Notes under the pieces: model-generated
What the model saw: only the letters and a program-made list of their open reading frames with translations
Databases searched by the model: none
What the model was told of the DNA's origin: nothing
Translations under genes and position numbers: made by a program
Assembly (NCBI RefSeq): GCF_030684315.1
Contig: NC_081373.1
Coordinates: 40,277,989 to 40,341,988, forward strand
From: Stegostoma tigrinum
Lineage: Eukaryota
Length of the DNA: 64,000 nt
Direction: 5' to 3'
Shown here: positions 4,477 to 60,300 of the stretch, piece by piece
Numbering within the stretch: position 1 is the stretch's first letter
Layout of the letters: every line of letters begins with the position of its first letter

Positions 4477-4620
4477 AATAATAAAATGTGAGGCTGGATG
4501 AACACAGCAGGCCAAGCAGCATCTCAGGAGCACAAAAGCTGACGTTTCGGGCCTAGACCCTTGAAGGGTCACATTTTATTATCTTGGAATTCTCCAGCAT
4601 CTGCAGTTCCCATTATCTCT
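4477..4620. mobile_element. Fold-back mini-PLE (family A), internally deleted
   Basis: Minus arm 4477-4562 ends in the HHR stem II, then GAAGGGTC, then the plus-strand 3' tail. TSD TGTTAATATTTTTT at 4463-4476 and 4620-4633. Confidence 0.88.
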
Positions 4621-5141
4621 GTTAATATTTTTTGGTCCTTTTAAGCAGTCATTTCTCTAGCATGATTATATGTGATTAAATAAAGTTAAATGTGAAAGCA
4701 TTCCTGTTGCTCATTTTTATTAAACCTTCATAACATTGATTTTTTGAAAAGTTGTGAATCAATTAAAGCTCGAATTGGGGGAAATAGTTTTGCATGAACG
4801 TGCACTTACAACTGGTAATAACAACTAACTTTCTCTTTACTGATAGTAACCTAGGAATTACTAGATGAAAAATAACAATGTCCTTTCTACAATCCTGGGC
4901 TCATGCGGTTCAACAATAAGAAGCTGAATAATCATAGTAATCAATCTCTATCAATTAGTCTACACAGATCCAGGCATGAGGCAAGAAAAATCTCAGTGGT
5001 GCAAAGCTGTTTGAACTATACGTCTAACTTGTTGCTTTCCTCCCAAGCATGCTACTCTTACCACATGTCACGTTTCAAATTACTCATACAATTTCTCTAA
5101 TAGTTCAAACAAAGATGCTTTTGACAAACTCTGTTCATCTG

Positions 5142-16310: not shown

Positions 16311-16867
16311 TCTCCCCGCTGGCCGAGGTATCCTTTAATGCCTGATATAGACTCATTATGTTGAAGTTACAGTCCAACCATCTGACAACCCAATGCAAAA
16401 GTCACTTTCGTTCAGTTCCCATCATTGCCACCAACACAAAACAGCTAAACTTCCCTTTAACTGCTGCCCATTATTTGGTGTCTAATCATGCCTTATCATC
16501 ATTGTAAGTGAAAAAGCTCTTGCCCTCATAGTATACACAAATAGCCAGTTTCCACAGAGATTGGAGACCATAACAGGCTCCCAAAGCCTGCTCTGTTTGC
16601 AACTGTGCAGAAGCAGAAATTACCACTGCGATACAAAGCAAGATGTGAATGCTGTCTCGGGGTAACTGACTGAGGCAGAAGGTGAAATGATGAGATCAAA
16701 GAGCTTTGAGCTGAAATTCCATGTCCCATTTTACATTCACCCCTCTCATGGTCTGACTACATTGATCTGATATGGATTTCTATTTGCTAACCCATGTAAA
16801 ACCCACCACAGAAACTCAGGTTCATATTGAGACAAATAACTTGAAGTTTATTAACACCAATTACATA

Positions 16868-16917
16868 CATGAATATGACATTTCAGACATATATATGTCT
16901 GAAATGTCATATTCATG
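16868..16917. repeat. Perfect 50-bp palindrome
   Basis: CATGAATATGACATTTCAGACATAT|ATATGTCTGAAATGTCATATTCATG, with no spacer. Confidence 0.95.
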
Positions 16918-17145
16918 CATCTAATTATACATATGTATATATTTTATATACATAATATCCAGACAAAGCATGGGTTCGCTGCTTATTTAGGTCACCATTG
17001 CTCTACATACAAAGTTGACTGACTCGCTGGCTAACTATTCATTACCGTCTTACTGACCAACGTATTCACCATACAAAGAGTAGAATCAAGATCTTCTATA
17101 CTCGAGTATCACATGTAGTTATCATCTAGCTCCCTTACAGGTGTA

Positions 17146-25410: not shown

Positions 25411-27708
25411 TAGTTTTAAGACCATTTTACGCTTCACGTGATTATGGCTAACTATTTCATGCCAACTCACCAACATTTTATTGTTACAAATTTTCTCAGA
25501 GTCTCATTAACAGAATAATTCAAATCTCCAAAATCGACCTTTCCTTTTTATATCATGCAACAGGACAATAGGCAATATTCTTTATTGGTCTTTCAATATT
25601 TACTCAGAAGTATGAATATTAGCTCATTATTAGGCTTAATAAACACCTGAACACTGTGGTAAAACCTCAGCTAGGTTGGAAGGTAGCAGGCATACGAAAA
25701 CCTGGAATATTGATTAATGGATCAGACATCCCTTCAAGTTGAGTAGCATTAGAACTGAAGTATGTCTCATGGGTCAAACTTACGCCAGTTTAACAAGCTT
25801 GAATTTTAAAAAATGAGACTACAAAGGTGCAAGATGATGAGTTTGGTAATAGTACAGTGAGAGGAACAAGAGACTAGGATGCACATGGGTATATGTATAT
25901 GTATACATATATGTATATGGATATGTATATATGTATATGGGTGGGAATGACCATAAAGAACACATCATTTGGCTACACTGGTCAGTAAGCCCAGTTTGAG
26001 AGTTCCAGGCTGGCCCAGAGGCTGGATCCTGGTAGGATATTCACTTATTCAGACGCAGCAGGTAGACAATTGAGATCATTTGAAAGTCAATCATCAGAGA
26101 CCATTCCGATTTCTCCAACTGCCCTATGGACATTCCTCCTCCCCACCACAATGTCAGGAACAGGCCTGGATGAGACTAAGAGGACAGTGCTGCAGTAAAA
26201 TTCTGATGTTTGCTACCTCCTGCTACCCAACTACAGCAGTGACTGCAGGCAGTGGCTTCTTATCCACGATGATGGCTCAGCAACTGCAACTATCTTTGAT
26301 TAGAATCTTTTAAAAAATGTGCAGAGAGAATGACTCAAGATAGAAATGGCTTTTCTGGTCCTTACAGTAGGCTCCTTTAATGCTTGAGCACCTCCTACTG
26401 GCATTCCAGCTGTGAAAACTCAACCCCTGTTCTTATCTGGTGGTGAGCACTTTCTCTGGCCAAGTAACTAGTTGGCCAATAAAAGCAACATCAATGTCGG
26501 GTGACTGTTTCCAACAAGTGCAATGTTGAGACTCACAATTAACCCTAAGGTTAAGATCCAGGCCCAAAAGGCCTTACCCATGGAATTTAAGATCTTAGTA
26601 AACAAAACAAAAGTGCTTTTTTTAACCAGCCAGGTTAGAGGATAGGGAACTTCATGGAGGAAAGATTGCAAAGGAGGGTGAATTAGAATGAATTAATTCA
26701 GTATGAGTATAGACTCAAAAAGAATTAAAGAAAGGGAAGAAAAGATTGGGTTCAGAGGGAGAGAGAAAGGAGGTGGAATGGAAAAGTATGAAAAGGATAA
26801 AAACATTTAATGTTGCAACTCTTAAAGAAAATCCCTGAAAGAAATTCATAACCTGAAAGGATAAATTGCACACTTGTAATTGTCCCTTTTATAGGAAAGG
26901 AGGTTGATGGATGATCATTATCAATTATCATGTTATTAAAAGTTTACTCACACTATTAAATACTAGCCATTTATAACGTGAGTTTCATGGGCAATTAATG
27001 TTCAAATACAACTACTTCATGAAAATCACCAGGAGGTTAAGGATGTGATTATGTTTTCACTAAGTTAACTGTGAAGCTACATAAATTGTCCAGTGATCAG
27101 AACCAACTTGCAACTTACAAATTATCTCTTCCTTACTATGAACTTAACACACATTAAGGCTCTTGTGGTGTAGTAGTGACGACCCTACGTCATGAATAGA
27201 TGTAGATAGACCTGCATTCATAATCCCATCTACTCCAGAGGCTTATGATAACACATTCAAACAGGCCACTATAAACATATTAGATTGTCACCCCCTTTTG
27301 AAGAATATCATTGAATCACTTCCTTCTAATTCAGAACCTTTAGAATAAGCATTGTGAAATTCTACCATCTGTTGAAAATAAACTCAGTACCTTTACATTC
27401 TCTCATTGCAGTGCTTCCTAAACATTTTCCCATGGCAAGCACATTACAAGGCTCGTAAATTATCATCACCCAATGCTGAGGATGATAAGATTGGGGAAGG
27501 CAAGTAGAAGACCCATGAGTGTGACATAGAAAGTGGAGTTCCATGATAGCCATTGCAGTCTTGGAGTTCACAATCCAAAAATTTCAGCTGTGGTGTCCTG
27601 ACCCCCACTTTAGCAAACAGTCTCAGTGAAGGTCAACAGAGGAAGTGAGTAAATTGTTTCCATTACTAACAATGTATCAGTTAACATCTATGTGAATTGC
27701 CAATTAAC

Positions 27709-30650
27709 TGAGATAACAAAGTGTAGAGCTGGATGAACACAGCAGGCTGCGCAGCATCAGAGGAGTAGGAAGGCTGATGTTTTGGGCTGAGATCGGTCTT
27801 CAGAAATGGGGGAGGGGATTCTGAAATAAACAGGGAGAGAGGGGGGGACAGATAGAAAATGGATAAAGGAGAAGATAGGTGGAGAGGAGACAGACAGGTC
27901 AAAGAGGTGGGGTTGGAGCCAGTAAAGGTGAATGTAGGGGGGGGAGTTAGGGAGGGGATAAGTAGGTCCAGGGAGGACGGACAAGTCAAGGAGGCAGGAT
28001 GAGATAAGGGTAGAATGATCAAGGGGGCTGTAGGAGGAGGTGTCAGTGACTTGGATTCTGGCCTCGGCAATGTAGAGGTCAGTGCGCCATACTACAAATA
28101 CGCCTCCCTTGTCCATGGGTTTTATGGTGAGTTTGGGATTGGAGTGGAGGGCTACCCGTTCTTTGCAGGAGAGGTTGGAGTGAGTGAGAGGAGTGGAGAG
28201 GTTGAGGCAATTGAGATCTTGATGGCAGTTAGAGATGAAGTGATCGATGGAATTTAAGAGGCCTTGGGGTAGTGTCCAGGAGGCGGGTGTGTGTTGGAGG
28301 CAGGAGAAGGGGTCAGTAGAGGGACGGTTAGGATCATGATTAAAGAAGTAAGTGTGGAGGTGGAGGTAGCGGAAAAACTGTTCAACGTCCAAGCGTGAGC
28401 GGTATTCGTCGATGTTTGGGTGGAGGGGGAGTCAGTCCTCAGTAAAGGGCTCACCTTTGTTCCCCTCCACCCAAACATCGACGAATACCGCTCACGCTTG
28501 GACGTTGAACAGTTTTACCGTCGCATCCATGCCTACTTCTTTAACAGTGAGCCTAACCTTCCTGCTTCTGACCCCTTCTCCCACCTCCTACACACACCTC
28601 CACTCCTGGGAACCACCCCAAGGCCTCTTCCCCCTCCCTCGACTTCTTCATCTCTAACTGCCATGGAGTCATCAATCGCCTTAACTCTCCACCCCTCTCA
28701 CCCACTCCAACCTCATCCCCGCAGAAGATGTAGCCCTCCACTCCAAACCACCACAGAACCTATCTTGACACTATCTTCTCCCCCTTGGTCTAGGAACTCC
28801 CTATCTACACCCGTGACACCACCTATACCCTCCACTTCCTCCAAAACTTCCGATCCCCTGGTCCACAACACCTCATCTTTACAGTGGAGGTCCAGTCCCT
28901 GTATACCTGCATTCCCCATGCAAATGGCCTAAAGGTCCTCCACTTCTTCCTGTCCTGCAGGTCCGACTAGTCCCCCTCAACTGACACCCACATCCGCTTA
29001 GCCAAACTTGTCCTCACCCTCAACAACTTCTCTTTCCAATCCTCCCACGTTCTACAGACAAAGGGGGTGGTCGTAGGTATCCACATGGGCCCAAGCTATG
29101 CCTGCCTCTTTGTAGGTTACATGCAACAATCCCTCTTCTGTAATTACACTGGCCCTAAACCCCACCTCTTCCTCTGTAACATTGATGGCTGTGTTGGCAC
29201 CGCCTCGTGCTCCCAAAAGGAGCTTGAACAGTTCATCCACTTCACCAACACCTTCCACCCCAACCTTCAGTTCACCTGGACCATCTCTGATACCTCTCTC
29301 TCCTTCCTGGACCTCTCTGCCCCCATCTCTGGAATCCACTTGGAAACCGATATCCATTTCAAGCCTACCGACGCCCACACCTACCTAGAATAAGCCTCCA
29401 CTCACCCACCTTCCTGCAAGAAGGTCATCCCCTGTTTCCAATTCCTTCGCCTCTGTCGCATCTGCTCCCGAGATGAGGCATCCTCTCCCGAACATACCAG
29501 ATGTCCTTGTTTTTCAAGGACCGCAACTTCCCCTCCGCAGTGGTCAAAAACGTCCTCGACCTTGTCTCTCACATTTCCTGCAACTCATCCCTCACACCCC
29601 CTCCCCACAATAACAACCAAAACAAAATCCCCCTTGTCCTCATATACTACCCCACCAACCACCGGATCCAACACATCATCCTCCGACACTTCCACCATCT
29701 GCAACCTGACCCACTAACAAAGACATTTTTCCATCCCCACCATATCTGCTTTCCAGAGGGACCACTATCTTTGTGACTCCCTTGTCCACTCCCCACTAGC
29801 CCCACCACCACTAGCACTTTTCCCTGCAACCGCAGGAAGTGTTACACTCGCCCCTATACCTCCCCTGTCACCCCCATCCCAGGCCCTAAGAGGACCTTCC
29901 ACATCAAACAGATGTTCACCCGCACATCTGCTAACGTGGTATGCTGTATCCATGGCTCCCGTTGTGGCCTCTTCTACATTGGGGAAACCAAGCGGTGGCT
30001 TGGGGACCGCTTTGTGGAACACCTACGTTCGGTTCGCAACAAACAACTACAGCTCCCAGTTGTGAACCATTTCAACTCCCCCTCCAACTTCTTGGACAAC
30101 ATGTCCATTCTGGGCCTCCTGCAGTGCCACAATGATGCCACCTGAAGGTTGCAGGAACAACATCTCACATTTTGCTTGGGAACGCTGCAGCCCAAGGGAC
30201 TTCACAAGTTTCAAAATCTTCCCTCCCCTGACCACATCCCAGAACCAGCCTAGCTCATCTCTGCCTCCCTAACCATTCCTCCCATCTCAAGACTCACCCC
30301 CATCTCCTACCCACTAATCTCATCCTGCCTCCCTGACCTGTTTGTCCTCCCTGGACTGACTTATCCCTTCCCTAACTCCCCACCTACATTCACCTTTACT
30401 GGCTCCAACCCCACCTCTTTGACCTGTCTGTCTCGTCTCCACCTATCTTCTCCATTATCCATCGTCTGTTTGCCTCCCCCACCTTCCTATTTATTTCAAA
30501 ATCTCCTTCCCCTCCCCCATTTCTGAAGAAGAGTCTTGACCTGAAACGTCAACTTTCCTGCTCCTCTGATGCTGCTTGGCCTGCTGTGTTCATCCAGCTT
30601 CACACCATGTTATCTCAGATTCTCCAGCTTTGGCAGTTCCTCCTATCTCT
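27709..30650 (+). mobile_element. Rearranged PLE family B: inverted 3' end, inverted ORF piece, then decayed RT/GIY-YIG and 3' pLTR
   Basis: ORF fragments match the 54199-57066 protein (SKGLTFVPLHPNIDEY, MGPSYACLFVGY, NVVCCIHGSRCGLFYIGETKR). HHR-like ttCTGAAGAagagtcttgacctGAAAcGTCaa at ~30521-30552. Inverted terminus at 27709-28010. Confidence 0.9.
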
Positions 30651-31271
30651 GTAGCAGATTACCTGATGCTGCTTATATCCAAGTAGCAGTCAGGAATGCT
30701 TTTTGGGATATTTGTTATTAGTGCTCATCTCCAGCATCACTATTTCCATTAAGTTATCCCCGTCAATGTGTCCACTGACACGCTGCCCTTCTGTAACTTT
30801 TGGACTTCATTCCCTTGCTATTGTTGAATTCAGAAGCTCTGTGTTGACTGTAACTCACCAATATCAGACTTTAACTCTGGAATATAAAAGAGATTGTGTT
30901 TCTGCCAAAAGGTCAATTTTTCAATTTGCAGTCTTAATCATGTCACATCTGTATTTTTTTTGTTGGATGATAAAATGAAATGGCAGGGAAGGAGGCCATT
31001 CAGCCCATTCAAACCTTTGATATTATTAAATTGATCTGTTTCTCCTGGTCTGTTCCTGTAGCCCTGTATTCTTTTTCCTTCAAAATATTTATTTTACTTT
31101 TTGAACATGATTATTGGACCTGCTTCCACCGCACTTTCAAACAGCGCATTCCAGGTCACAAGTTGATGTGCAATAGAAAATGTTTAAATATGTTGCTTCT
31201 TGTTCTTTTGCTAATCATCTTAAATATCTGTCCTCTGGTTACTGCTAGGTCTCTCACAGCAAATACAGCCT

Positions 31272-37197: not shown

Positions 37198-37546
37198 ATA
37201 TGTTATGATTTTTTAGACAAATTGGTTGTAGAATTTCAATACAGTGTTAAGGATTGATTCTTGACATAACACTCCCTCCAAATAATTAAAGAAGGATTTT
37301 GAAAGTAACCTTTTGAGTTAGCTTCTTTCAAGCAGCAGCAGCTTTCTGGAATCACAAACCAAAAAATCATTATTTTAACTAAAAATATTTCTAGCCTTTG
37401 AAATTTTCCTAAATACTTAGATGTATGAAATGGACATTTGGGATGACATTACTCAGATTGAAAGTACTTTGGTAGTCTCTTCTTGGTTCACTAAGTTTAT
37501 GAATTTCTACTAACTGGGAAAAGCTATAAGGAAAAGGATGTTCCTA

Positions 37547-38480
37547 AAGCTGATGTTTTGGGTTGAGACCCTTCTTCAGATATGGGGGAGGGGAAGGGGA
37601 CTCAAATAAATAGAGAGACAGGGCGAGGCGGATAGAAGATGGATAAAGGAGAAGTTGGGTGGAGAGGAGGCAGACAGGTCAAGGAGGCAGCTTTAGAGCC
37701 AGTGATGTTAATGTAGATGGGATTTAGGGAGGGGATAATTAGGTCCAGGGAGGACAGACAGATCAAGGAGGCTGGATGAAGCTAGTCAGTAGGAGAAGGG
37801 GTGGGGCTTGAGGTGGAAGGAAAGGTTAGGGAGGCTACACTCAGTTCACAACAAACAACTACACCTCACAGTCGCGAACCATTTCAACACCCCCCCCCCC
37901 CAACTCCTTGGTCGACATGTCCATCCTGGGCCTCCTGCATTGCCACAATGACGCTACCTGAAAGCTGCAGGAAAAACATCTCATATTTCGCTTGGGAGCC
38001 CTGCAGCCCAAAGGATTTCACAAGCTCCAAAATCTCCCCTCCCCCGACTGCATCCCAACACCAGCAAGCAAGTCCCCACCTCCTTAACCTATCCTTCCTC
38101 CCACCTATGCCCTCCTTTCACCTCAAGCCCCACTCCCATCTCATACACCCTAATCTCTTCCCACCTCTTGACCTGTCCATCCTCCCTGAACCGACCTACC
38201 CTCTCCCTAAGTCCTCACCTACATTTACCTTCACTGGCTCTAACCCCCCTCTTTGACCTGTCTGCTTCCTCTCCACTTATCTTCTCCTCTATCCATCTTC
38301 TATCCGCCTCCCCTGTCTCTCTATTTATTTCAGAATCTCCTTCCCCTCCCCCATTTCTGAACAAGGGTCTTGACCCAAAACGTCAGCTTTCCTGTTCCTC
38401 TGATGTTGCTTAGCCTCCTGTGGTCATCCAGCTTTTCACCGTGTTATCTCAGATTCTCCAGCATCAGCAGTTCCTACTAT
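37547..38480 (+). mobile_element. PLE family B 3' fragment with inverted terminus
   Basis: Minus arm 37547-37835 and plus arm ~37840-38480. TSD TTCCTAAA(G/T)CTGA at 37541-37553 and 38480-38492. Confidence 0.85.
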
Positions 38481-41515: not shown

Positions 41516-42353
41516 ATGTCTAAGGCTAGGAGTACTATTTTCAGACTAAAATTCCCAGCATGCACAGCAGACCCACTAAGCAATTAGTGGAGTACAGGGC
41601 CACATCAGTGTAATAACCCTGCAGGTAACTGTTGTTCATCCTTAGTCACCAAAAACACAGTGCTATGTTAAAGGGTAATAAGACTAAACTGTTATAATAT
41701 GAAAGTCATGCAATGAAGCAGCAGTACTGGAGGAGTTTGTAAAACCTTGAGGTTTGTGACCATCACATGTGTTATTCTAAATATAACACAATTTTTGAGC
41801 CACATAAGCAGAGATGTACAGTTGATTCAATTATCACAAACATCTTCAGATGCGTCAGTCAAAAGAATGAATTCAATGAAAATACTGTTGAGCAATATAA
41901 GACTTCAATTCACTGGATGAAAACAAAAGTCAAATTACACTGGATAATCAAATCTACATGACATTTGTCGCTCCATTCCAACCACTTGAGTTCAATATTG
42001 GTCAGGTGAAGGCCCATTGAAAGGAATGGCTTTTCGTTTTTAAATCAAAGCAAATTTTCTTTTAATTGGCTTTATTCTATTTTTAATTAGCTTTTGGATA
42101 ATTACTCTGTGCAGAAAGTGCAAATGCTGTGTGTCATGGCATAAGAAATTAATCAAAACCAAAGCGTTAATATCGTTATGCTCAAAGTCGATTTTAGAAG
42201 AATGTATTTAAATGGATGAAGCTGTGGTATTGGTTGCAGAAGGTCTTATTAACATTATCATGAGTGCGGTGCAAATGAAACACAAAAATAGTTTGTACGG
42301 AAATGGAAAAAGGAAATCTCGAATCCAGCAATTAAAAGGGTAAGGTTATTTTC

Positions 42354-42548
42354 AAGATAACAAAATGTGAGGCTGGATGAACACAGCAGGCCAAGCAGCA
42401 TCTCAGGAGCACAAAAGCTGACGTTTCGGGCCTAGACCCGAAACGTCAGCTTTTGTGCTCCTGAGATGCTGCTTGGCCTGCTGTGTTCATCCAGCCTCAC
42501 ATTTTGTTATCTTGGATTCTCCAGCATCTGCAGTTCCCATTATCTCTG
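42354..42548. mobile_element. Near-perfect hairpin mini-PLE (family A) centred on HHR stem II
   Basis: About 80-bp arms around GGGCCTAGACCC, plus a ~35-nt 3' tail. TSD GGTTATTTTCAAG at 42344-42356 and 42551-42563. Confidence 0.93.
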
Positions 42549-43249
42549 AGGGTTATTTTCAAGTTCGTTTGTGAGAGAAGATATTTGAATGTGATTACAA
42601 AAATTAAGAATGTTGTTTCTTAATGTATAATTATTTGAGGATGTTTTGGTGCTTCCATTTAATTGAAATTGGGTAAATGTTTGAAGCAAAAGATCAAACA
42701 GGGTAGGTGGTGGTAGAAAAAGCAGTCAATGGATTAATCTTAAATTGCTCTGGCAAAGAAGCAACATGAATTGAATGGTTTCTTGCTGCACTGCAAAGAG
42801 CTTAGGTTTTCCTCAGTGCAAGTTACGCCTCAAATTCAAGGGAGAAGGGTAGGCCTGTTGGGAAATGCTTTGTCTAACAAATAATAGTCATGCTTCTGCA
42901 TAAATTTAAACAAGTTTCCCCTCTCAGAATTACTCATGCTTTCACATTTTATAGTATTTCAAACAATATTTTATACATTTGCAAGAAGCTTATTTAATCA
43001 CTTAATGCTGTTGAAAGCAATAGTCCTAAAGAAAACACTATAAGCCTAAGGCCAGTTTTCCTGCCATGGATTCCATTGGAGAAGCCCACTATTCTTTGAT
43101 GAAGGCTATCTCAGTATACGAAGTACCACTAGAGTCTTGTGTGTGAAAATACCCAGTATAGTGTTAATTTTATACCAACGTGACTAATTATATGTAGGTG
43201 ATGAACATTAACCATAGATTGAATTGTGCTCCTATAAGTAGGAGCAGGG

Positions 43250-47179: not shown

Positions 47180-48110
47180 TTGTCGATGCAGCAAGTAATT
47201 AAGAAGGCAAATTTAATATTGGCCTTCATTGCTAGAGGGATGGAGTTTAAAAACAGGGAGGTTGTGTTGCAGCTGTTTAGGGTGCTGGTAAGGCCACACC
47301 TTGGGTACTGACACAGTTTTTGTCTCCTTACCTAAGAAAAGCAGTAATGGCATTGGAGGGGGTGCAGAGGAGGTTCACTAGGTTAATCCTGGAATTGAGA
47401 AGGTTGGTGAATGAAGAGTAATTGTGCAGACTGGGGCTGTACTCATTGGAATTTCGGTGACTGAGGAGGGATCTTGTAGAAGCATATAACGTTATGAAGG
47501 GAATAGATAAGTTAGAAGCAGAAAGGTTTCTAAGGTTTTGGAGTAGATTTGTTGTTTAGGTTGTGGGTGTTGAGGTTGGTTGTCTCAATGAGCTGGCTTG
47601 TTGTTCTGCACCGGTGAGGGTGTTGTTTATAAGTTTGTATACATCCTCTAGTTTGGTCCGTTTAATGATAACAAAGGTATTGTCCATCATTAAACAAACC
47701 AAACTAGAGGAGACGCACAAACTTTTAAAGAACACCCTCACTGGAAACCAGCTTGGCGAGCCAACCAACCTCAAGCAGAGAGGTTGTTTCCAGTGGTGGG
47801 AGAAACTAGAACTCAGGGACATAGCCTCAAAATAAAGGGGAACAGGTTTAGGCCCAAGTTGAGGAAGGGATGCTTCACCCAAAGTGTTGTGAATCTGTGG
47901 AATTCCCTGTCCAATGAAGCAGTTGAATCTATCTCATTGAATGTTTTTAAGGCAAAGAGACAGAGGTTTTTGAACTGTAAGGAAATAAGGGTTATGGTGA
48001 GTGGGTGGGTAAGTGGAGCTGAGTCCTCATAAAGATCAGCCATGATCTTATTGAATGATGGAGCATGCTCAATGGGCCAGTGACCTAATCCTGTTCCTAT
48101 TTCTTATGTT
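47180..48110 (+). mobile_element. CR1-type LINE 3' region interrupted at 47529-47772
   Basis: LFRVLVRPHLGY..QF, RLGLYSLEFR.LRRDLVE and TQGHSLKIKG...FTQSVVNLWNSL motifs. Confidence 0.85.
47529..47772. mobile_element. Fold-back fragment of a Poseidon-type PLE
   Basis: Hairpin of an RT segment (DNTFVIIKRTKLEDVYKLINNTLTG on minus; IIKQTKLEETHKLLKNTLTG on plus). TSD AAGCAGA(A/G)AGGTT at 47516-47528 and 47773-47785. Confidence 0.7.
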
Positions 48111-48119
48111 TTAACTTTC

Positions 48120-51100
48120 CATGGGGCAACTGATACTCTAAACTTTCAAGAGTTGATGGATTTAGCTAAGGAATATTATGGCCCCAAGCCTCCCGTAATT
48201 CTGAGAATCTACTGGTTTTACTTGGTAGTTCAAAACCTGGGGAAGCCCAATCAGGATTTTTGACGTGGTTTAGACAACTGGCAGGGGCATGTGATTTCAG
48301 TTGAACCCTAAGTGATATGCTAAGAGACTGTTTGGTGTGGGGAAGATTAATGATGCAACCACGCGAAAGCACCTATTGCTGAAGGCCAACTGAACTTCAA
48401 ACAGGCACTACAACTGTTTTTATCATTGGAAAATACAGCAAGCGGAGCATATAAGTTGCAGGGTATTTCAACAGACACCTTCACCAGGCCAACTGAGTCT
48501 GGGGAACACCACCTGAGTTTGGACAATTGCATAGCCTCACTTAAGTCATGTCTGAACAGAGGGACTCTAGGTCAGCCCACGGTAAAACCCCGAAACAAAG
48601 CCGAGCCTGGGCCAAATGGTTAAAATTTTCTTCAGGATCTGGGCTGGCAAACCTTTGTAGTCGCTGCTGGTGTGCAGACTCAAGAAGGCAAAGGAGCCCC
48701 TCTGGACCTAAATTGAGTAAAATAACTCATAGACTGGTATCCGGGAGAGTGCACACCCTGGAAAATCCATGTATGTATGGTCCGGAACAGTTAAACTGCT
48801 TAGCAATATCCAAATCCGAACCAATTAAAATTAATGTCTGATTAAATGTCACCTGGTCCTGATGGAGGTTGACAGTGGCACGTCTGTATCAGGGTTTGCA
48901 GAAACAATCTTTACCAAAATTTGCTCTGGACTCTTTAGCCTTTAGGTTTTGCAAGACCTTGGCCAGGCTGAGAGCCTACGCCAGGAATTCCGACAGATTA
49001 ACAGTACAACTTTGATTCCTGTCTCTTATGAGAAGCATCTGGTTCAGTTACAAATGACTGTAGTAAAAAGCCCAGGCGCAAGCTTGATGGGGTGAAATTG
49101 ATTGTGAAAGATCCAACTTGACTGACTCAACAGTTTTCAATTGGAAAATGACTACCTGAGTGAGGTCCTAATAAAATGCCCAGACATTTTTCACAAAGGT
49201 CTAGGGGCTATCGAAGGAGCCAAGTCTACCTTACATGTTGACTAAGAAACAACTCCATGATTTGGCAAGGCCCACCCAATGCCATTGGCCTGTCTGGCAA
49301 AAGTAGAGGCAGAAATAAGGAGGATGGAAAGCAAAGAAATCATCAAACTAGTACAGTCTGAGGAATGGGCAGCACTGGTCTTACTGATTGTGAAGCCTGA
49401 CAGGTTGGCTCACCGTTTATGGCAATTTCAAACAAACAGCAAAATGCTTGCTGCAATTGGATAAATGCTATGCAAAACTGGTATGCAAAACTGGTGGGAG
49501 GCTGACCTTCACAAAGCTGAACAAGAGCCATGCATACCTGCAATTGTAATTAGATGAAGATTCAGTAAATATGATACAGTTAATACCCATAAGGGTTTGT
49601 ACCAGTGTCGAAGTCTGCCATTTGGGCTATCATCAACTTATGCTACTTCCCAGCAGGCCATTGGGAACAATTTACAAGGGCTACCCCCAAGTCTCTGTTT
49701 ATTTGGATGACATGCTAATAAACGGGATGACTAATAAAGAGCATTTTATAAATGTCATAAACGTTACTCCAAGACAGGTAAATGCATTAGGACGGAAAAA
49801 ATGAGTGTTCCAGGCACCCCAAGTGACCCACTTGGGCTACAGAGTTGACAAGACCAGCTACACTTGTTGGAAGATAAAGTGAGGGCGATCAAAGATGCCT
49901 CGGTTCCCATATCGATACAGGAGCTTAGCTCTTTCCTTTGGGCTGGTGAATTATTATGGAAAGTTCATATGTTACCTGACCTCCATCGTGGCACCCTTAC
50001 ACCTGCTATTTAGAAAAGGCCAGCCTTGGAAATGGTCTTACAGCCAAGAAGTAGCCTTTAGAGAAGTAAAGAAGCAACTATTCTGTAAATCCCTGATAAC
50101 AGCACCCAATCCCCCGATGGCTGGTGCCTTCTTCTAAGGAGTTGGCCCATTACAATACCGAGCGAGGTGTGGTGCTACATGCAATGCCTCCCCATATGGC
50201 ATCGGGATAGTGTTGGTTCATCAGTGGCCCAGTGGAGAGGAATACCTGGTAGCATGTGCTTCCAGGACTGTGGCTGACGCTGATTGAAGATACGCCCAGA
50301 GAGAGAAGGAAGGTTTGGCAGTTATCTTTGATGTGAGAAAGTTCTACCAACACCTTTTATGGATGTAAATTTGTAATAGTAATGGACCACAGACCCTTGT
50401 TTGGGCTACTTAGAGGACAAGCCCATGCCACCCATTATTTCAGGGCAAGTTCAGGTGGGCTCATATCCTGAGTGCATACACTTACAAGGTGGAAACTATC
50501 CGGGAGGCCAAGTGTCAAATACACATGCATTGAACCGCCTCCCATTGGCAGTTACACTACTGCTCATGCCACCACTAGAAGAGTCCGTGATAATAAAATG
50601 TGAGGCTGGATGAACACAGCAGGCCAAGCAGCATCTCAGGAGCACAAAAGCTGACGTTTCGGGCCTGGACCCTTCAACGTCAGCTTTTGTGGCTCTCTGA
50701 TGAAGGGTCCAGGCCCGAAACATCAGCTTTTGTGCTCCTGAGATGCTGCTTGGCCTGCTGTGTTCATCCAGCCTCACATTTTATTATCTTGGAATTCTCC
50801 AGCATCTGCAGTTCCCATTATCTCTGATACTAGAAGAGTCCGTTCTGGTTTTCGATGTTCTGGACATCCTTCCAGTCACTGCTGGATAATTGGACTGTGG
50901 GCACAAAAAGAATCTATCCTGGTAAAACCAAAACAGCTGGTAGTGATGAGGGAAACAGAAGGGCCAAGACAACCAGAATTGAAACTTTTCTGGACCTGGT
51001 GAGGCCAGAGGATGGAATATTTTTATGGGAAACAAGAGTGATTGCCCCTAGCAAAAGTTCACTGCCAGATACTGGCTGCATTCCACTAGGGTCATCCAGG

Positions 51101-51545
51101 CATTTCCAAAATGAAGGTATTGGTGTGGAGTTATGCCTGGTGGTCAGGATTGGATGCAGATCTAGCTACATGGTGGGTCAGTGCCCAGAGTGCCAACAAA
51201 GACAAAACATACTGCCAACAGCTCCCCTATGTTCAGGGGAATGGCGGGGTAAACCCTGGACTTGGTTACACGTTGACCATGTTGGTCTTTTCGTAGCCCC
51301 TATGTTCTTAATCATTGCGGATGCCCTTTCAAAGTGGTTGAACATTACGTAAAATTCATTTGTCGAACACAGGGACAACGATAGAAAAAATGTGAGCATC
51401 TTTTGCAATATATGTACTCCCAGAAGTGCTGGTCACAGACAGTGAGCTATCATTTACCAGCAGCATATTTGAGTATTTTCTAAAGTCGAATGGCATCCAT
51501 CATGTAATGACAGCTCCATGCCATCCGTTGTCCAATGGTCAGATT
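48120..51545 (+). mobile_element. Degenerate Ty3/Gypsy gag-pol (PR-RT-RH-IN order)
   Basis: gag-like QKPGE...LSDMLRDCLV; protease MEVDSGTSVS (~48862); RT VYLDDMLI (~49697) and GLVNYYGKFI..L..IVAPLH.L; RNase H-like CNASPYGIG; integrase SYAWWSGLD..., CPECQ, PWTWLHVDH. Many stops and frameshifts. No LTRs recognised. Confidence 0.88.
50589..50828. mobile_element. Fold-back mini-PLE (family A) inserted in the Gypsy pol
   Basis: Inverted arms with HHR. 15-bp TSD ACTAGAAGAGTCCGT at 50574-50588 and 50829-50843. Confidence 0.93.
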
Positions 51546-52110: not shown

Positions 52111-52346
52111 GGGGTGACATGGTGGCTCAAATGCTGTATCACTGCACCAGGGACCCGTGTTCAATTCCACCCTCAGTGACCGCCTGTCTTGAGTTTGCAC
52201 ATTCTCCCTGTGTCTGTATGGGTTTCCTGTCAGACTCCAAAGATGTGCAGGTTAGGTGGATTGGCCACGCTGACTTGCCCATAGTATCCAGGGATATACA
52301 GGCTAGGTCGATTTAGCCATAGGAAATGCAACGGATAGCGTACGAG
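52111..52346 (+). mobile_element. HE1-like SINE 5' part (3' part resumes at 57391-57478 after the PLE)
   Basis: Head GGTGGCTCA...GTGTTCAATTCC and body GAGTTTGCACATTCTCCCTGTGTCTG...CCAAAGATGTGCAGGTTAGGTGGATTGGCC. Continues GGTGTGTTTGAGTAGGATGC...TTCCACACTGTA after the second TSD. Confidence 0.8.
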
Positions 52347-52442
52347 TGATAATGGGAACTGCAGATGCTGGAGAATCCAAGATAATAAAATGTGAGGCTG
52401 AATGAACACAGCAGGCCCAGCAGCATCTCAGGAGCACAAAAG

Positions 52443-52474
52443 CTGACGTTTCGGGCCTAGACCCTTCATCAGAG
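52443..52474 (-). ncRNA. Hammerhead ribozyme motif in the inverted arm of the full-length PLE
   Basis: Reverse complement reads ctCTGATGAaGGGtctaggCCCGAAAcGTCag, identical to 57295-57326. Confidence 0.78.
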
Positions 52475-53725
52475 AGGGGGATGGGGTGAGGGTTCTGGAA
52501 TAAATAGGGAGAGAGGGGGAGGCGGACCGAAGATGGAGAGAAAAGAGGATAGGTGGAGAGGAGAGTATAGGTGGGGAGGTAGGGAGGGGATAGGTCAGTC
52601 CAGGGAAGACGGACAGGTCAAGGGGTGGGATGAGGTTAGTAGGTAGGAGGTGGAGGTGCGGCTTGGGGTGGGAGGAAGGGATGGGTGGGAGGAAGAACAG
52701 GTTAGGGAGGCAGAGACAGGTTGGACTGGTTTTGGGATGCAGTGGGTGGAGGGGAAGAGCTGGGCTGGTTGTGTGGTGCAGTGGGGGGAGGGAACGAACT
52801 GGGCTGGTTTTGGGATGCGGTGGGGGAGGGGGAGATTTTGAAGCTGGTGAAGTCCACATTGATACCATTGGGCTGCAGGTTTCCCAAACGGAATATGAGT
52901 TGCTGTTCCTGCAACCTTCGGGTGGCATCATTGTGGCACTGCAGGAGGCCCATGATGGACATGTCATCTAAAGAATGGGAGGGGGTGTGGAAATGGTTTG
53001 CGACTGGGAGGTGCAGTTGTTTATTGCGAACCAAGCGGAGGTATTCTACAAAGCGGTCCCCAAGCCTCCGCTTGGTTTCCCCAATGTAGAGGAAGCCACA
53101 CCGGGTACAGTGGATGCAGTATACCACATTGGCAGATGTGCAGGTGAACCCCTGCTTAATGTGGAAAGTCATCTTGGGGCCTGGGATAGGGGTGAGGGAG
53201 GAGGTGTGGGGGCAAGTGTAGCATTTCCTGCAGTTGCAGGGGAAGGTGCCGGGTGTGGTGGGGTTGGAGGGCAGTGTGGAGCGAACAAGGGAGTCACGGA
53301 GAGAGTGGTCTCTCCGCAAAGCAGACAGGGGTGGGGATGGAAAATGTCTTGGGTGGTGGGGTCGGATTGTAGACGGTGGAAGTGTCGGAGGATGCCCAGT
53401 TCGTCCGCTCCCCCCACTGCACCACACAACCAGCCCAGCTCTTCCCCTCCACCCACTGCATCCCAAAACCAGTTCAACCTGTCACTGCCTCCCTAACCTG
53501 TTCTTCCTCTCACCCATCCCTTCCTCCCACCCCAAGCCGCGCCTCCATCTCCTACTTACTAACCTCATCCCACCTCCTTGACCTGTCCCTCTTCCCTGGA
53601 CTGACCTATCCCCTCCCTACCTCCCCACCTATACTCTCCTCTCCACCTATCTTCTTTTCTCTCCATCTTCGGTCCGCCTCCCCCTCACTCCCTATTTATT
53701 CCAGAACCCTCACCCCATCCCCCTC

Positions 53726-53757
53726 TCTGATGAAGGGTCTAGGCCGAAAATGTCAAC
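53726..53757 (+). ncRNA. Mutated hammerhead motif in the 5' pseudo-LTR
   Basis: ctCTGATGAagggtctaggccGAAAatGTCaa: same motif with changes in stem II and helix III. Confidence 0.6.
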
Positions 53758-54198
53758 TTTTGTGCTCCTGAGATGCTGCTGGGCCTGCTGTGTTCATCTA
53801 GCCTCACATTTTATTATCTTGGATTCTCCAGCATCTGCAGTTCCCATTATCACTGATACAATTTTAACCTCACTGCGAAGCCTCTTCCAGGGATGCCTAA
53901 CCTGAAGAAGTTACCCTCCTCCCTCCGGACCAACCTCAAGGAATCTCTCTCCCATTGCAACTCCCTTGTAATCTCTTCGGCCTTGAAACTGCTCGACCAT
54001 GTCCTGAAGTAAACCAGGTACCACTGCCACATCACCTTCCTCAGCACCTGCCTACGGAACCAGATCAACCCCAATGGACTACAGTCTACATTTCAGCCTT
54101 CCCAATTTGACCCCAACCATGACCACCTCTACACCCAGAATATTCAGACCCTTCAGAAGCGTTTCTCCCTCTGAATCCTGAAACAGACACTCGCAGCC

Positions 54199-57066
54199 AT
54201 GCGCCGGCACCTCCACACACTGCAATCCAGCCTGCCCCAGCTCAGAGCCTCCCTCTCCCAGACCTACAAAGGACCTCTGCTGTTTTTTATCCTCCGCAGG
54301 ATCCACAGACTGAACACTCAGTTTCACTCAGCTTTACTGGACACCAAAAATCGTAAGTACAACAAACTCACGGGCCCCTGCCACCCACAAGAGGATTCCT
54401 GTGCATCCCAAATCCCGAGTCTGTCCCTGCCCCTCCCCCACCATGCACCTGCCGCCATTGACTATGAGGACACAGCCGGGGACCCCATCGATGACGTCAC
54501 ATCCGCCTCCGCCAACCACACCACTTCCGGGACCGCTGCTGCAGTCACCACCTCCACGTCCAGGTACTACAGCCCACACACCACCCTCACCTCAGCTGCT
54601 GCCGCCCACCCCGATCCTCCCACCGCCGACGGAACCCCGCCCACGGTCGACGCCGACGGAACCCCACCCACGGCCGACGACCTCATCGCTCCGCCCACAA
54701 CCTCCACAGTCAGCAACCCCACAGAAGACAGCCACACTGAACCCTGCCACATCTTCACCATCCCCCCAGACCTCCCACTGACTGAGGACGAACGGTCAGT
54801 CCTTAGTAAGGGGCTCACCTTTGTCCCCCTACAACCACACATTAACGAATACCAGTCACGGTCGGACATAGAACAGTTTTTCCGCCGCCTTCGCCTCCAT
54901 GCCTACTTCTTCAACCGGGAACCTAACCCTCCCTCCACTGACCCCTTCACCCGCTTCCAACACAAGTCCTCCTCCTGGACACCACCCCCAGGCCTCCTAC
55001 CTTCCCTCGACCTCTTCATCTCTAACTGCCATCGAGACATTAACTGCCTCAACCTCTCCACCCGACTCACCCACTCCAACCTCTCCCCCGCAGAATGGGC
55101 AGCCCTCCGCTCCCTCTGCTCCAAACCCAACCTCACCATCAAACCCGCAGACAAGGGTGGCGCAGTGGTAGTATGGCGCACTGACCTCTACATCGCCGAG
55201 GCCAGATGCCAACTCTCCGACACCACCTCCTACCGCCCCCTCGATCATGACCCCACACCCGAGCACCAAACCATCATCTCCAACACCATTCATGATCTCA
55301 TCACCTCAGGGGACCTCCCACCCACAGCCTCCAACCTCATTGTTCCCCAACCCCACACGGCCCATTTCTATCTCCTTCCCAAAATCCACAAACCTGCCTG
55401 CCCTGGTCGACCCATCGTCTCAGCCTGCTCCTGCCCCACCGAACTCATCTCCACCTATCTGGACTCCATTTTCTCCCCTTTGGTCCAGGAACTCCCCACC
55501 TACATCCGTGACACCACCCACGCCCTCCACCTCCTCCAGGACTTCCAATTCCCTGGCCCCCAACACCTCATTTTCACCATGGACGCCCAGTCCCTATACA
55601 CCTGCATTCCGCATGCAGATGGCCTCAAGGCCCTCCGCTTCTTCCTGTCCCGCAGGCCCGACCAGTCCCCCTCCACCGACACTCTCATCCGCCTAGCCGA
55701 CCTCGTCCTCACCTTCAGCAACTTCTCTTTCGATTCCTCCCACTTCCTACAGACTAAGGGGGTGGCCATGGGCACCTGCATGGGCCACAGCTATGCCTAC
55801 CTCTTTGTAGGTTACGTGGAACAGTCCCTCTTCTGCACCTACACAGGCCCCAAACCCCACCTCTTCCTCCATTACATTGATGACTGTACCGGCGCCGCCT
55901 CTTGCTCCCCAGAGGAACTCGAACAGTTCATCCACTTCACCAACACCTTTCACCCCAACCTTCAGTTCACCTGGGCCATCTCCAGCACATCCCTCACCTT
56001 CCTGGATCTCTCGATCTCCATCTCAGGCAACCAGCTTGTAACTGATGTCCATTTCAAGCCCACCGACTCCCACAGCTACCTAGAATACACCTCCTCCCAC
56101 CCACCCTCCTGCAAAAATTCCATTCCCTATTCCCAATTCCTCTGCCTCCGCCACATCTGCTCCCAGGATGAGGCATTCCACTCCCACACATCCCAGATGT
56201 CCAAGTTCTTCGGGGACCGCAACTTCCCCCCCGTAGTGGTCGAGAACGGCCTTGACCGCGTCTCCCGCATTTCCCGCAACACATCCCTCACACCCCGCCC
56301 CCGCCACAACCACCCCAAGAGGATCCCCCTAGTTCTCACACACCACCCCACCAACCTCCGGATACAACGCATCATCCTCCGACACTTCCGCCGTCTACAA
56401 TCCGACCCCACCACCCAAGACATTTTTCCATCCCCACCCCTGTCTGCTTTCCGGAGAGACCACTCTCGCTGTGACTCCCTTGTTCGCTCCACACTGCCCT
56501 CCAACCCCACCACACCTGGCACCTTCCCCTGCAACCGCAGGAAATGCGACACTTGCCCCCACACCTCCTCCCTCACCCCTATCCCAGGCCCCAAGATGAC
56601 TTTCCACATTAAGCAGAGGTTCACCTGCACATCTGCCAATGTGGTATACTGCATCCATTGTACCCGGAGTGGCTTCCTCTACATTGGGGAAACCAAGCGG
56701 AGGCTTGGGGACCGCTTTGCAGAACACCTCCGCTCGGTTCGCAATAAACAACTGCACCTCCCAGTCGCAAACCATTTCCACTCCCCCTCCCATTCTTTAG
56801 ATGACATGTCCATCATGGGCCTACTGCAGTGCCACAATGATGCCACCCGAAGGTTGCAGGAACAGCAACTCATATTCCGCTTGGGAACCCTGCAGCCCAA
56901 TGGTATCAATGTGGACTTCACCAGCTTCAAAATCTCCCCCTCCCCCACCGCATCCCAAAACCAGCCCCGTTCCTCCCCTCCCTCCACTGCACCACACAAC
57001 CAGCCCAGCTCTTCCCCTCCACCCACTGCATCCCAAAACCAGTCCAACCTGTCTCTGCCTCCCTAA
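54199..57066 (+). CDS. PLE reverse transcriptase / GIY-YIG endonuclease (955 aa open frame; the ancestral start is probably ATG 53893)
   Basis: PLE RT motifs IKPADKGGAVVVW, YLLPKIHK..PGRPIVS, TMDAQSLYT, KGVAMG..MG.SYA, HYIDD, FLDL. Cys linker CNRRKCDTC. GIY-YIG NVVYCIHC...LYIGETKRRLGDRFAEH. Confidence 0.95.
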   Translation: MRRHLHTLQSSLPQLRASLSQTYKGPLLFFILRRIHRLNTQFHSALLDTKNRKYNKLTGPCHPQEDSCASQIPSLSLPLPHHAPAAIDYEDTAGDPIDDVTSASANHTTSGTAAAVTTSTSRYYSPHTTLTSAAAAHPDPPTADGTPPTVDADGTPPTADDLIAPPTTSTVSNPTEDSHTEPCHIFTIPPDLPLTEDERSVLSKGLTFVPLQPHINEYQSRSDIEQFFRRLRLHAYFFNREPNPPSTDPFTRFQHKSSSWTPPPGLLPSLDLFISNCHRDINCLNLSTRLTHSNLSPAEWAALRSLCSKPNLTIKPADKGGAVVVWRTDLYIAEARCQLSDTTSYRPLDHDPTPEHQTIISNTIHDLITSGDLPPTASNLIVPQPHTAHFYLLPKIHKPACPGRPIVSACSCPTELISTYLDSIFSPLVQELPTYIRDTTHALHLLQDFQFPGPQHLIFTMDAQSLYTCIPHADGLKALRFFLSRRPDQSPSTDTLIRLADLVLTFSNFSFDSSHFLQTKGVAMGTCMGHSYAYLFVGYVEQSLFCTYTGPKPHLFLHYIDDCTGAASCSPEELEQFIHFTNTFHPNLQFTWAISSTSLTFLDLSISISGNQLVTDVHFKPTDSHSYLEYTSSHPPSCKNSIPYSQFLCLRHICSQDEAFHSHTSQMSKFFGDRNFPPVVVENGLDRVSRISRNTSLTPRPRHNHPKRIPLVLTHHPTNLRIQRIILRHFRRLQSDPTTQDIFPSPPLSAFRRDHSRCDSLVRSTLPSNPTTPGTFPCNRRKCDTCPHTSSLTPIPGPKMTFHIKQRFTCTSANVVYCIHCTRSGFLYIGETKRRLGDRFAEHLRSVRNKQLHLPVANHFHSPSHSLDDMSIMGLLQCHNDATRRLQEQQLIFRLGTLQPNGINVDFTSFKISPSPTASQNQPRSSPPSTAPHNQPSSSPPPTASQNQSNLSLPP

Positions 57067-57294
57067 CCTGTTCTTCCTCTCACCCATCCCTTCCTCCCAC
57101 CCCAAGCCGCGCCTCCATCTCCTACCTACTAACCTCATCCCACCTCCTTGACCTGTCCGTCTTCCCTGGACTGACCTATCCCCTCCCTACTTCCCCACCT
57201 ATACTCTCCTCTCCACCTATCTTCTTTTCTCTCCATCTTCGGTCCGCGTCCCCCTCTCTCCGTATTTATTCCAGAACCCTCACCCCATCCCCCT

Positions 57295-57326
57295 CTCTGA
57301 TGAAGGGTCTAGGCCCGAAACGTCAG
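57295..57326 (+). ncRNA. Minimal type I hammerhead ribozyme motif in the 3' pseudo-LTR
   Basis: ct-CTGATGA-a-GGGtctaggCCC-GAAA-c-GTC-ag: HHR core boxes CUGANGA and GAAA, stem II, GUC triplet, short palindromic ACGT at helix III. Minimal HHRs are established in PLE pLTRs. Confidence 0.8.
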
Positions 57327-60300
57327 CTTTTGTGCTCCTGAGATGCTGCTGGGCCTGCTGTGTTCATCCAGCCTCACATTTTATTATCTTGGATAGCGTA
57401 CGAGGGTGTGTTTGAGTAGGATGCTATTTGGATGGTTTGTGTGGACCTCATGGGGTGAATTGCCAGCTTCCACACTGTACTTTTTCAAGACTTTAGTCTT
57501 GTAATTTAGTATGTGTGTCACACTTTGAAGGTGCTCTTTCTGAATTGGTTGAATAGCTAGAATATTGAGTTCATTGTTCGTGAAGTAATCCTTCCCCAAC
57601 TTGTCCTTTGATTTTCACAATGGATCCATCACTTTCTTTCTATTTTCATATCAAAATGATCCAACTCTTTCATATGACATAGATATCTCAATTAGGATAT
57701 ACTAATAACATGATGTTATGAATTGGAGTTTTTTTAGTAATATTTATAACAGAGCTTCTGTACAATTTGCCCACAAACACACTGAGAATGAACAACCTAT
57801 TTCCCTACAGATTAGTGCTTCCACGCACAAAGAGGAAATGGAACTTTTAATATTTTACTTTGAATTCAATTTTTTGGTGTTGAAATGTAATTTTCTCCAA
57901 AGATTTTAGCCTATGTGTTTTTACACTTTGAAACAACAATGGTTGAACGTGTTTTTTATGATAATTGTTTCTACTGAATCTTTTATTGATACAACATTGA
58001 CAGCAACTCATGGGTCAGCCAAGCTATAAAAATGATACTATTCACCACGATAATGTTTGTTCATAGGCTGACAGTATGCTTTGTGTACCTTGTTATTCTT
58101 GCTGCCAACCTCAAAAGCAGGACCCGGTTTTTAGGCAGAAAGCAAAAAACAGTCCTGTTTACATTACTGACATTGGTTCCACTTTTAGATTTGGTCCAGG
58201 AGTTGTGCATGTCAGTCTCATCAAAGCGTAAGTGATCTACCAAGGGGAAGGTAGCCTCCTTTTAAGGTCTGATCAGAAGATTCTTGTTGAATAAACAATG
58301 TGAATTTTATTGCATTACTGCAATACTTACAGATTACATAAATAAAATCCACATTACTACAGAGACTACTAAAGAGGCGTACACTAGTCTCAGATCTGTT
58401 TTCTATATCCTCCTTGTTTAGTTTGATCTAGTCCTTGCAACATCATCACTGTGGGTGGAACTTAAGACAGTCAGTCAAGTATGGGGGAAGTTACCTAACT
58501 GTTGAACCACTCATTTTTTCGAGCGAGCTCTAGTTGTATTTGCAACAGTAGGTAGAATCATAGAATTGTTCAAGCACAGGGAAAGGTCATTCAAACTATT
58601 GTGTCCATGCTGTCTCTCCGAAAGGTCCATTCATGTAATGCCCCTCCTTTGCCCCCTTTCTCTACATTCCTCTTCTTCAGATATTTAGAATACTTAGAAA
58701 ATGTAGAAAAATTTCCAGCACAAAATGAGACCACTCTGCCCAGTTTGTCTCTGCTTTCGGCTGAGACTTCAGGGCCCAGTGCTCAGGCAGACAGCAGTAA
58801 ACAGTTCTGTTTATATCTCCGTGGAACATGTGATAAATAATGCTTAATGGAATTAAAACAGAATTACTTTGATACCACATTATAACTTTCTGGCAATTAG
58901 GTTACTAGTAGGTGAAGCAGACAAAGTTTTCCACTTTATATCCATCAAGTTTACAGCCAAAAGATTTAAAGGGGACGCTCATGTGGCTTGGCAATGAGCA
59001 AAGCTGTGATTTCAAAATTTCAGGAGTGCATTATAAATTGATCACGTTCGTCACGACCATGTTTATCTTTTCTCCATATTTTTGGTTGTGGAATGAAATT
59101 TACAAAAGGGACTAATTTACAATCAAGGATGGTGGAAGGAATTGCTGCAATTTTTAAGTACAAGTTATGGAAACTCATTGTAGGTGGTGTTTTCGTTGCT
59201 GCTTTGGTCAAGCAATGGGGGAAGTTGTCTGTAGTTGATCCAGCGCTGTGAAGTTTACATAGAGTGACTGAAGTGAGCAAGTTACTGATTTGTTGGTGTA
59301 ATTGTGATCAGTCATGGATACCAGAAAACATCAGCCTGATTACAACTCTCTGGTTCCTTGGTCACTGAATTGCTTGTGTGTTTGAGCCAAACAGTAAGAA
59401 GCCTTTGGATCTCTCCAAGTGGATGTAGCTTGTGTGCCTCACTGCAGTCAAACTGATGCCTGAAGAAAGTAAGTTATTCCACACCATTCCTGGGCCCCTA
59501 GTTGGTGTAAGTTTTTGCCTTTGACCAGCAGCTAAGAGACTCTGCAATTATCCTGTGTGAAGAAATAAAGGAACCTGGAGAAAAGAGATTGAAGAAAAGA
59601 AAGTCATGGCAAATCAATAGGATCATTTCAGCTGACCTTGTGGACAGGTGCTATAGAACTGTGCTCCCCAGTTTCTCCTTCTCTTCACACTTAAATCAAT
59701 GCCTTATTGTTTGTGTGTGCATCTAACGGGTTCAAAAAGTAGGTGAGATTTTTAAATTGTAGAGCTGCATGTTGATAATTCATAGCTCTTTACTTGTGAC
59801 TGGAATTTACACCTTTGTAATAAACAGTAGTTCTTATTAATCATGAGGGCCTGGTCAGTCTTTTCTGTTAGCTTAATTCCAACAGCTGAATCAGGGGCTT
59901 GTCAACTGATCAAATCATTAACTCTTGTTGTGACCACAGGAGTAGTAGGGCGTGAGAAACAGTGCACTGTTCCAACTGAGTCATCACACATTACCATCAG
60001 AGCCACAAGTGATATGAAGTGTGTGAGCTGCTGCACGACTGTACATGTCAGTACTGTAAAATGCAAAAAAGTTAGGAGCAGGCATTAATGGCAACCAGCC
60101 ATTTAAAGTGACCCACCAGGCATATACCTCATGGAGTTGGTGCTCCCTTTAAATAACAATTGCACTGGCTTCCTTTTGGTCAGTCTTGAAGAGAAAGGCA
60201 GATCTCAGGAATTTAAATTTAGCTAAAAGCACTACAGAGAGGCAGATATATTAATTCGCCCTTTACCATGTTCAGGCAGAATACCTAGATATCTAAAGCT

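Follow-up and report, generated by a model that had tools for sequence, protein, structure and literature searches.

The window analysed here, the whole 64,000-nt stretch of Stegostoma tigrinum contig NC_081373.1 (positions 40,277,989 to 40,341,988), contains at 42344-42563 a 195-nt insert without an ORF, made of two 3' stubs of a Penelope-like element (PLE) arranged head to head. Such inserts are referred to below as minis. This one lies between two plus-strand copies of a 13-bp target-site duplication, GGTTATTTTCAAG, at 42344-42356 and 42551-42563, and the last 4 nt of the left copy also fit the end of the left arm. An inverted-repeat scan of the window finds two arms of 81 nt each (42353-42433 and 42434-42514), 99% complementary and with zero spacer, around a junction at 42413-42454. 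Element positions are counted with the C of the reference hammerhead's predicted GUC cleavage site as zero (57324 = 0); on this scale the CUGAUGA box begins at -27 and the 12-mer of stem II occupies -19 to -8. The tail-less arm (42353-42439, minus strand) is the reverse complement of 57305-57391 at 97.7% identity by alignment within the window; it runs from about +67 back to -19 and includes the whole stem II 12-mer. The mini is centred on the antisense copy of this 12-mer (42428-42439), with the symmetry axis at 42433/42434. The right arm is the sense strand and continues into the tail: 42440-42517 (plus strand) matches -7 to +70, comprising GAAAC, the GUC site and the downstream pLTR, and is followed by an optional Penelope tail of about 32 nt (42518-42549, plus strand; match to 53735-53856), which is confined to this arm. 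An intact CUGANGA core (CTGATGA box) is absent from both strands of the mini.

The hairpin is real and is one among thousands of head-to-head stubs. The earlier note had proposed that it folds on stem II and has lost the CTGATGA box; the arm alignment and the identity of the centre bear this out. Its further claim, that the other minis of the window also join in or beside the ribozyme, holds as well, yet none of them folds on stem II: the 5' ends of their arms lie at -21 (mini centred at 4562), -30 and -21 (5271/5273), -32 and -2 (17275/17280), and -23 and -31 (50676/50693). Irregular joints also occur in the window. At 4563-4631 a right arm begins near -23, jumps from about -15 to +49 and then enters the tail, and at 1165-1288 the two arms of one mini are separated by about 125 nt of unrelated repeat-like DNA with an inverted match at 1598-1668, possibly local DNA captured during joining. 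Two further hairpins are unrelated (16859-16926, 34-nt arms; 47611-47744, 59-nt arms).

The parent element is represented by a long insertion at 52340-57394, which follows the same plan: a tailed inverted arm (52340-53394) opposes a tail-less 4-kb arm, with a 14-bp target duplication. It has the layout of EN+ PLEs, namely a pLTR in partial tandem, an inverted 5'-truncated copy and a tail at one end. Its 963-aa frame (54175-57066, plus strand) has a GIY-YIG match in Pfam below the curated cut-off (E 0.00046), no match to a Pfam RT family and no match in PDB; its Atlas neighbours, at 0.98, carry RVT_1, HTH_animal and GIY-YIG. The predicted product is thereby that of an EN+ PLE, with RT followed by GIY-YIG in one ORF. 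The frame also contains a CX4CxxC motif, and since such a linker preceding EN points to the Neptune clade in the available text of PMC8557442, it suggests that the parent belongs there. At 27708-30651 and 37546-38480 the window holds older insertions of this family, also head to head, whose arms measure 0.3-2 kb. A separate frame at 50834-51352, directly preceded by a mini with a target duplication, holds a fragment that we take to be integrase-like from its WPGKPW/HVDH-type motif and is likely an LTR retrotransposon remnant.

The reference hammerhead lies at 57293-57326 (plus strand) within the long copy's 3' pLTR, with a putative RNA 5' end at 57293 (-31) and predicted cleavage after 57324. 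It has the CUGANGA and GAAA cores, stem II, a palindromic stem III, an NUH site and stem I, which fits a minimal type I hammerhead. In 10 window copies 93% of 70 cells are paired, far above slid controls, and the pairing displays no two-sided covariation and no excess over shuffles. An Rfam scan gave no hammerhead match at E 1, only chance miRNA hairpins, and the pLTR end folds as a single strand no more stably than shuffles do (z -0.27 to 0.34). A co-fold of two copies via stem II reaches -38 kcal/mol, as it would for any near-palindrome.

To place the mini among its relatives, we used exact-pattern searches of the 3.2-Gb genome, which favour young copies; the individual loci listed by them lie on the first contigs. 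An exact match to the 28-nt junction was found 147 times and one to its reversed control not once, so the junction is not due to chance. Freeing its two asymmetric positions gives 200 copies, the 147 with either parental 12-mer plus 53 symmetric ones. Of the first 30 loci, 17 owe the 12-mer to the tail-less arm and 11 to the tailed arm, while 2 are unscored; three of the 17 represent a single triplicated insertion. The latter is present with identical flanks at three places about 100 kb apart (L067, L068 and L069 on G000 C2), likely through tandem segmental duplication. The stem II loci belong to several subfamilies and differ in their flanks, whereas the arms within a copy share variants. The occurrence of the junction in both tail orientations and in several subfamilies indicates repeated formation and not descent from one founder. 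Many contigs carry near-identical copies, which could be read as one non-autonomous hairpin family amplified from such a founder, but the tail lies on either side of this junction, at least four subfamily backgrounds are represented and centre lengths vary continuously, which makes this extremely improbable. The single junction inherited by descent that would mark a self-amplifying MITE- or SINE-like family was not found among these copies.

How prominent is the stem II fold? When both arms are required to be intact from -7 to +7, the genome holds 229 minis with a 12-nt centre, 426 with centres of 9-15 nt, 3,369 with 0-30 nt and 10,474 with 31-60 nt. The 12-nt centre is thus about seven times as frequent as its neighbours (229 against 197 across six neighbouring lengths, about 33 each), and at the same time it accounts for 229 of 13,843 comparable minis (1.7%), a fraction that CpG decay causes to be undercounted. 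An unbiased sample of 28 blocks of 50 kb (1.4 Mb) yielded 49 short head-to-head pairs, of which none has the fold; one unpaired old arm comes close. Another self-complementary word, +11 to +18, forms the joint in 3 of these 49 pairs (blocks L146-L155). Overall, junction positions are strongly non-uniform and cluster at the ribozyme; the uniform spread that would have spoken against the earlier note is not what was found. As a joining site, stem II is a real local hotspot, sevenfold above its surroundings, but a minor one, and it reads as a by-product; the DNA-level role proposed for it is not upheld by 229 of 13,843 minis.

The ends of the arms are more telling than the joints. Of 279 arms found in the 1.4 Mb, 237 passed identity and edge filters. 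Among these 237, ends per nucleotide number 0.19 at -60 to -34, 9.5 at -33 to -28, 4.3 at -27 to -21, 0.69 at -20 to -8, 1.1 at -7 to -1 and 1.9 at 0 to +6, and 68 arms extend past -150. Put differently, 57 of the 154 arms that reach -28 stop at -33 to -28, against 5 of 97 in the next 27 nt (-60 to -34). The edge is seen in all four subfamilies. Because a reverse transcriptase reaches the 3' side of the ribozyme first, a stall on its structure is expected at +1 to -8; the edge lies instead beyond the whole motif. This bears directly on the model of the earlier note, in which stem II structure stops synthesis and the stem sets or joins the ends at the DNA level. The sevenfold peak at the 12-nt centre is what such a model predicts. 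Nonetheless, only 9 of the 193 arms that reach -8 or beyond end within stem II (-19 to -8) and 4 of the 193 on the 3' side of the stem, where a stall is expected, solo ends are not enriched at stem II, sampled short pairs lack the fold, its overall share is small and other self-complementary words, such as +11 to +18, are used too. We therefore regard the model as very unlikely. Its corollary that templates cannot all have been cleaved stands, since the same 193 of 237 arms must derive from uncleaved RNA.

The -31 edge is likely the 5' end of the RNA and not a structural stall; a transcription start just upstream of the ribozyme core, probably capped, is a likely identity for it. The base preceding the -31 motif is informative in this respect. 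Genome-wide, 8,457 copies have a non-C base there, and a hand count of the first 100 listed gives 69 G, 26 T and 5 A. Of 70 loci fetched, 7 are long arms with a point change, and G precedes 45 of the other 63, which are truncated. For 45 loci a script detected no exact template in the partner arm, the sense strand or the target; this group is inflated by mutations near the joint, and 31 of its members have G. Extra G marks capped full-length 5' ends of L1, according to the accessible text of PMC11702581. However, only 9 of the 31 are a lone G, while 22 are AG, GAG or longer and mirror the arm start as its reverse complement, so that end-to-end copying between the two cDNAs accounts for the G no less well than a cap would. 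On either reading the template ends at -31. The oldest subfamily gives a weaker signal (the base before the A is C in 43, A in 38, G in 16 and T in 3 of 100 by hand count). Full-length copies that end at -31 are too few to be informative, with 8 matches extending beyond the tail.

The sequence context agrees with a start site. In the young family -31 is a C followed by pyrimidines, and in the oldest family it presumably approximates the initiator consensus. A YC-type transcription start is described for vertebrates in the part of PMC6954239 available, and for Drosophila virilis Penelope the available texts of PMC2377424 and PMC8557442 place the start inside the pLTR with the promoter downstream. 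Two other origins of the edge were considered and rejected. Stopping on entry into a C run is contradicted by upstream runs, at which 1 of 96 and 1 of 95 arms end, and by the further C runs within -60 to -34; a splice acceptor is contradicted by the preceding genomic bases, which are CC and not AG.

A second, smaller class of ends coincides with the cleavage site. With flanks at +10 to +25, which differ from those of the stem II count, 2,264 loci have centres of 0-30 nt. In a hand count of the first 50, 22 are joined exactly at AGCT (+1 to +4) and none at ACGT (-4 to -1), giving an estimate of 996 AGCT joints (interval 679-1,330) and fewer than 161 ACGT joints. Twenty AGCT examples differ in their flanks and fall into three subfamily types; scored by script, the tail is one-sided in 19 of them and present on both arms in 1 (L335, which breaks the one-tail rule described below). 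Among the top joints of DNA contigs, direct tandem joints into +1 account for 4 of 12 rows in one case and 3 of 12 in another; the contigs represent one sample, possibly the source of the genome itself, and hence are not independent. L342 is another such case. In the unbiased sample only 6 of 207 arms end at 0 to +2, which counts against cleaved templates, as does the anole element PAc, for which Frangieh 2024 (PMC11167929) detected no RNA ends at the cleavage site. Trimming from -31 would meet stem II, GGCC and ACGT before it reached AGCT, so that ends at +1 are the simplest reading, and we consider it fairly likely that the AGCT class was copied from ribozyme-cleaved RNA. In this class, which is larger than the stem II class, self-cleavage appears to set the end of the cDNA, as the earlier note had proposed in general terms; that ribozyme structure sets the main stop is not supported, given the edge at -33 to -28, and the 42344-42563 mini is not a member of the class.

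A different kind of joint, from +9/+10 through an extra G to a second unit starting at -31, is found at 50677-50735 and at L057, L277 and L282. It is the top joint row among contigs and yields short tandem hammerhead units, which could seed retrozyme-like arrays.

For the 42344-42563 copy itself, the main rival is an origin after insertion. Replication slippage between the near-direct stem II repeats would delete the centre of a longer palindrome and leave identical stem II products, and perhaps also AGCT ones. Long perfect palindromes are prone to deletion, which favours this reading, and the products expected are those seen: 147 copies with either parental 12-mer and 53 symmetric ones, or, among the first 50 listed, 9 of single-crossover and 1 of double-crossover type by hand count. 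But slippage fails the AGCT control, because ACGT is of equal length and nearer the centre and is used in 0 of 50 loci against 22 of 50, and longer centres are retained in thousands of minis. On these grounds we hold later slippage to be unlikely.

The outer 3' ends of the arms are bimodal, at +61 to +70 and +97 to +105, and tail-less ends fall in the first group. Among short pairs one arm is tailed in 45 of 49, both in 3 and neither in 1, whereas 77 of 152 other arms are tailed. The two modes correspond to the pair of RT starts on either side of the tail in the anole PAc element in vitro, where both target strands are nicked and extended and uncleaved RNA is the main template (Frangieh 2024, PMC11167929, as far as its available text goes). 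It is quite likely that the outer ends at +66 and +100 are two RT start sites used within one event. Since one tail is the rule and either arm can donate the stem, two cDNAs from two starts are indicated. The arms of a pair also tend to agree in class (21/7/4/11, p 0.0035; mixed-class 11 of 43), and they have more non-consensus letters in common than shuffled pairs (35 against 5.2 in 44 of 49 stem II loci, 18 against 4.6 in 20 AGCT loci), a sharing that would also follow from a common source locus or later conversion between arms. Shared variants and a shared cleaved or uncleaved class suggest that perhaps a single RNA templated both arms.

Copying of both arms from one source is equally what self-priming predicts, whereby one cDNA, or an antisense RNA as has been proposed for rotifer Penelope, folds back at the palindrome. 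Junction palindromes have been so interpreted in the available text of Arkhipova 2013 (PMC3846280), that of PMC11371274 reports R2 snap-back after full-length cDNA, and the 11 of 30 loci with a tailed-arm 12-mer could be explained in this way. In the 17 of 30 with a tail-less-arm 12-mer (three being the triplicated insertion), however, a folding tail-less cDNA cannot produce the tail. The tail-less arm is moreover the longer one in 15 of 45 pairs (the reverse in 27, equal in 3), blunt -31/-31 joints leave no loop, and tail-less ends sit at +61 to +70 instead of being scattered. Self-priming thus appears quite improbable.

On balance we lean towards a scheme of two-start, twin-primed cDNAs that run to the RNA 5' end and are joined by microhomology. 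The enzyme would prime two cDNAs, one per target nick, at the two internal starts of the element. Both would run off the RNA 5' end, at -31 if the RNA is uncut and at +1 if it is cut, and their 3' ends would be joined in one of three ways: blunt, through end-to-end copying, or at self-complementary words once they had been trimmed. The last of these, with ends trimmed and annealed at nearby words of which stem II is one among several, is itself likely. In the 42344-42563 mini both cDNAs would have gone past the cleavage site and paired through stem II. Of the earlier reading, then, the organisation of junctions by the ribozyme region and the mostly uncut templates remain, and stem II as the stop of synthesis does not.

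It is tempting to go further and compare the first 136 nt of the RNA with retroviral strong-stop DNA. The RNA would start four bases before the core, a dimeric enzyme would prime two cDNAs per RNA a short way downstream, and most events would end as RNA-5'-end minis; the hammerhead (-31 to 0) would serve as an R-like repeat, and the cDNA, in order to copy the full element, would jump to an RNA end created by self-cleavage in the 3' pLTR. We consider this doubtful. Its single test, which looked for strand transfer in the form of a cap G inherited by long arms, lent no support: long arms have no clear G excess at -32 (47 of 100, from 363 loci) over the control position -39 (39 of 100, from 389 loci). 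If true, ribozyme cleavage in vivo would be recorded in the genome in a thousand copies, and a route to pLTR formation would follow.

Head-to-head PLE ends, junction palindromes, one-sided tails and opposite-strand hammerheads are already described in the accessible parts of PMC3846280, PMC8557442 and PMC4209133 and reviewed in PMC6765202. Searches of open-access main texts yielded no precedent for the junction map, for reading the one-tail rule as twin priming or for the cleavage-site peak. These features bear on how PLEs build inverted ends and tails and on the purpose of the hammerhead, questions raised in the available texts of PMC11167929, PMC8557442 and PMC4209133. Tens of thousands of natural end-products have sharp joint positions that point to an RNA 5' end at -31, to paired use of the starts and to a minority of ribozyme-cut templates, and the join points likely record both the RNA start and the position of the ribozyme cut. 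All three features are testable in the existing in vitro system.

Several known systems resemble parts of this picture; the comparison extends to the accessible text of each source. EN+ PLE inverted-pLTR insertions (Arkhipova 2013, PMC3846280; Craig 2021, PMC8557442) share the head-to-head 5'-truncated copies, junction palindromes or overlaps, a 30-40 bp tail at one end and a target duplication. The mini differs in being a 195-nt ORF-less insert and in having junctions mapped to -31, the cleavage site and stem II, and we favour two sense-RNA cDNAs over antisense self-priming as its origin. The anole Poseidon element PAc (Frangieh 2024, PMC11167929) has the same two tail-bounding starts, extension of both strands and an uncleaved main template. 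No PAc RNA reads ending at the cleavage site were detected there, and the text at hand does not link the starts to one head-to-head product, whereas the shark genome has a junction peak at that site and the one-tail rule. Metazoan PLE minimal type I hammerheads (Cervera and de la Pena 2014, PMC4209133) share the core boxes, an extra base before stem II, a G-C closing pair, a palindromic minimal stem III and opposite-strand motifs 100-700 bp apart; stem I of the shark parent is only 2 bp, as described there for D. virilis, and the mini, unlike them, is without the first core box. That text reports no evidence of in vivo cleavage. Non-LTR retrozymes (bioRxiv 10.64898/2026.07.22.740005) are likewise PLE-derived and non-coding, with a type I hammerhead, but are head-to-tail tandems of units with complete, intact ribozymes, whereas the mini has no such units and is head to head, core-less and apparently made anew each time. 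In L1 twin priming (PMC11702581), too, both target ends prime, the inner joint uses microhomology and full-length 5' ends carry an extra G. However, L1 inverts two adjacent RNA segments, while the two PLE cDNAs would copy the same segment from two fixed starts and so produce an inverted duplication.
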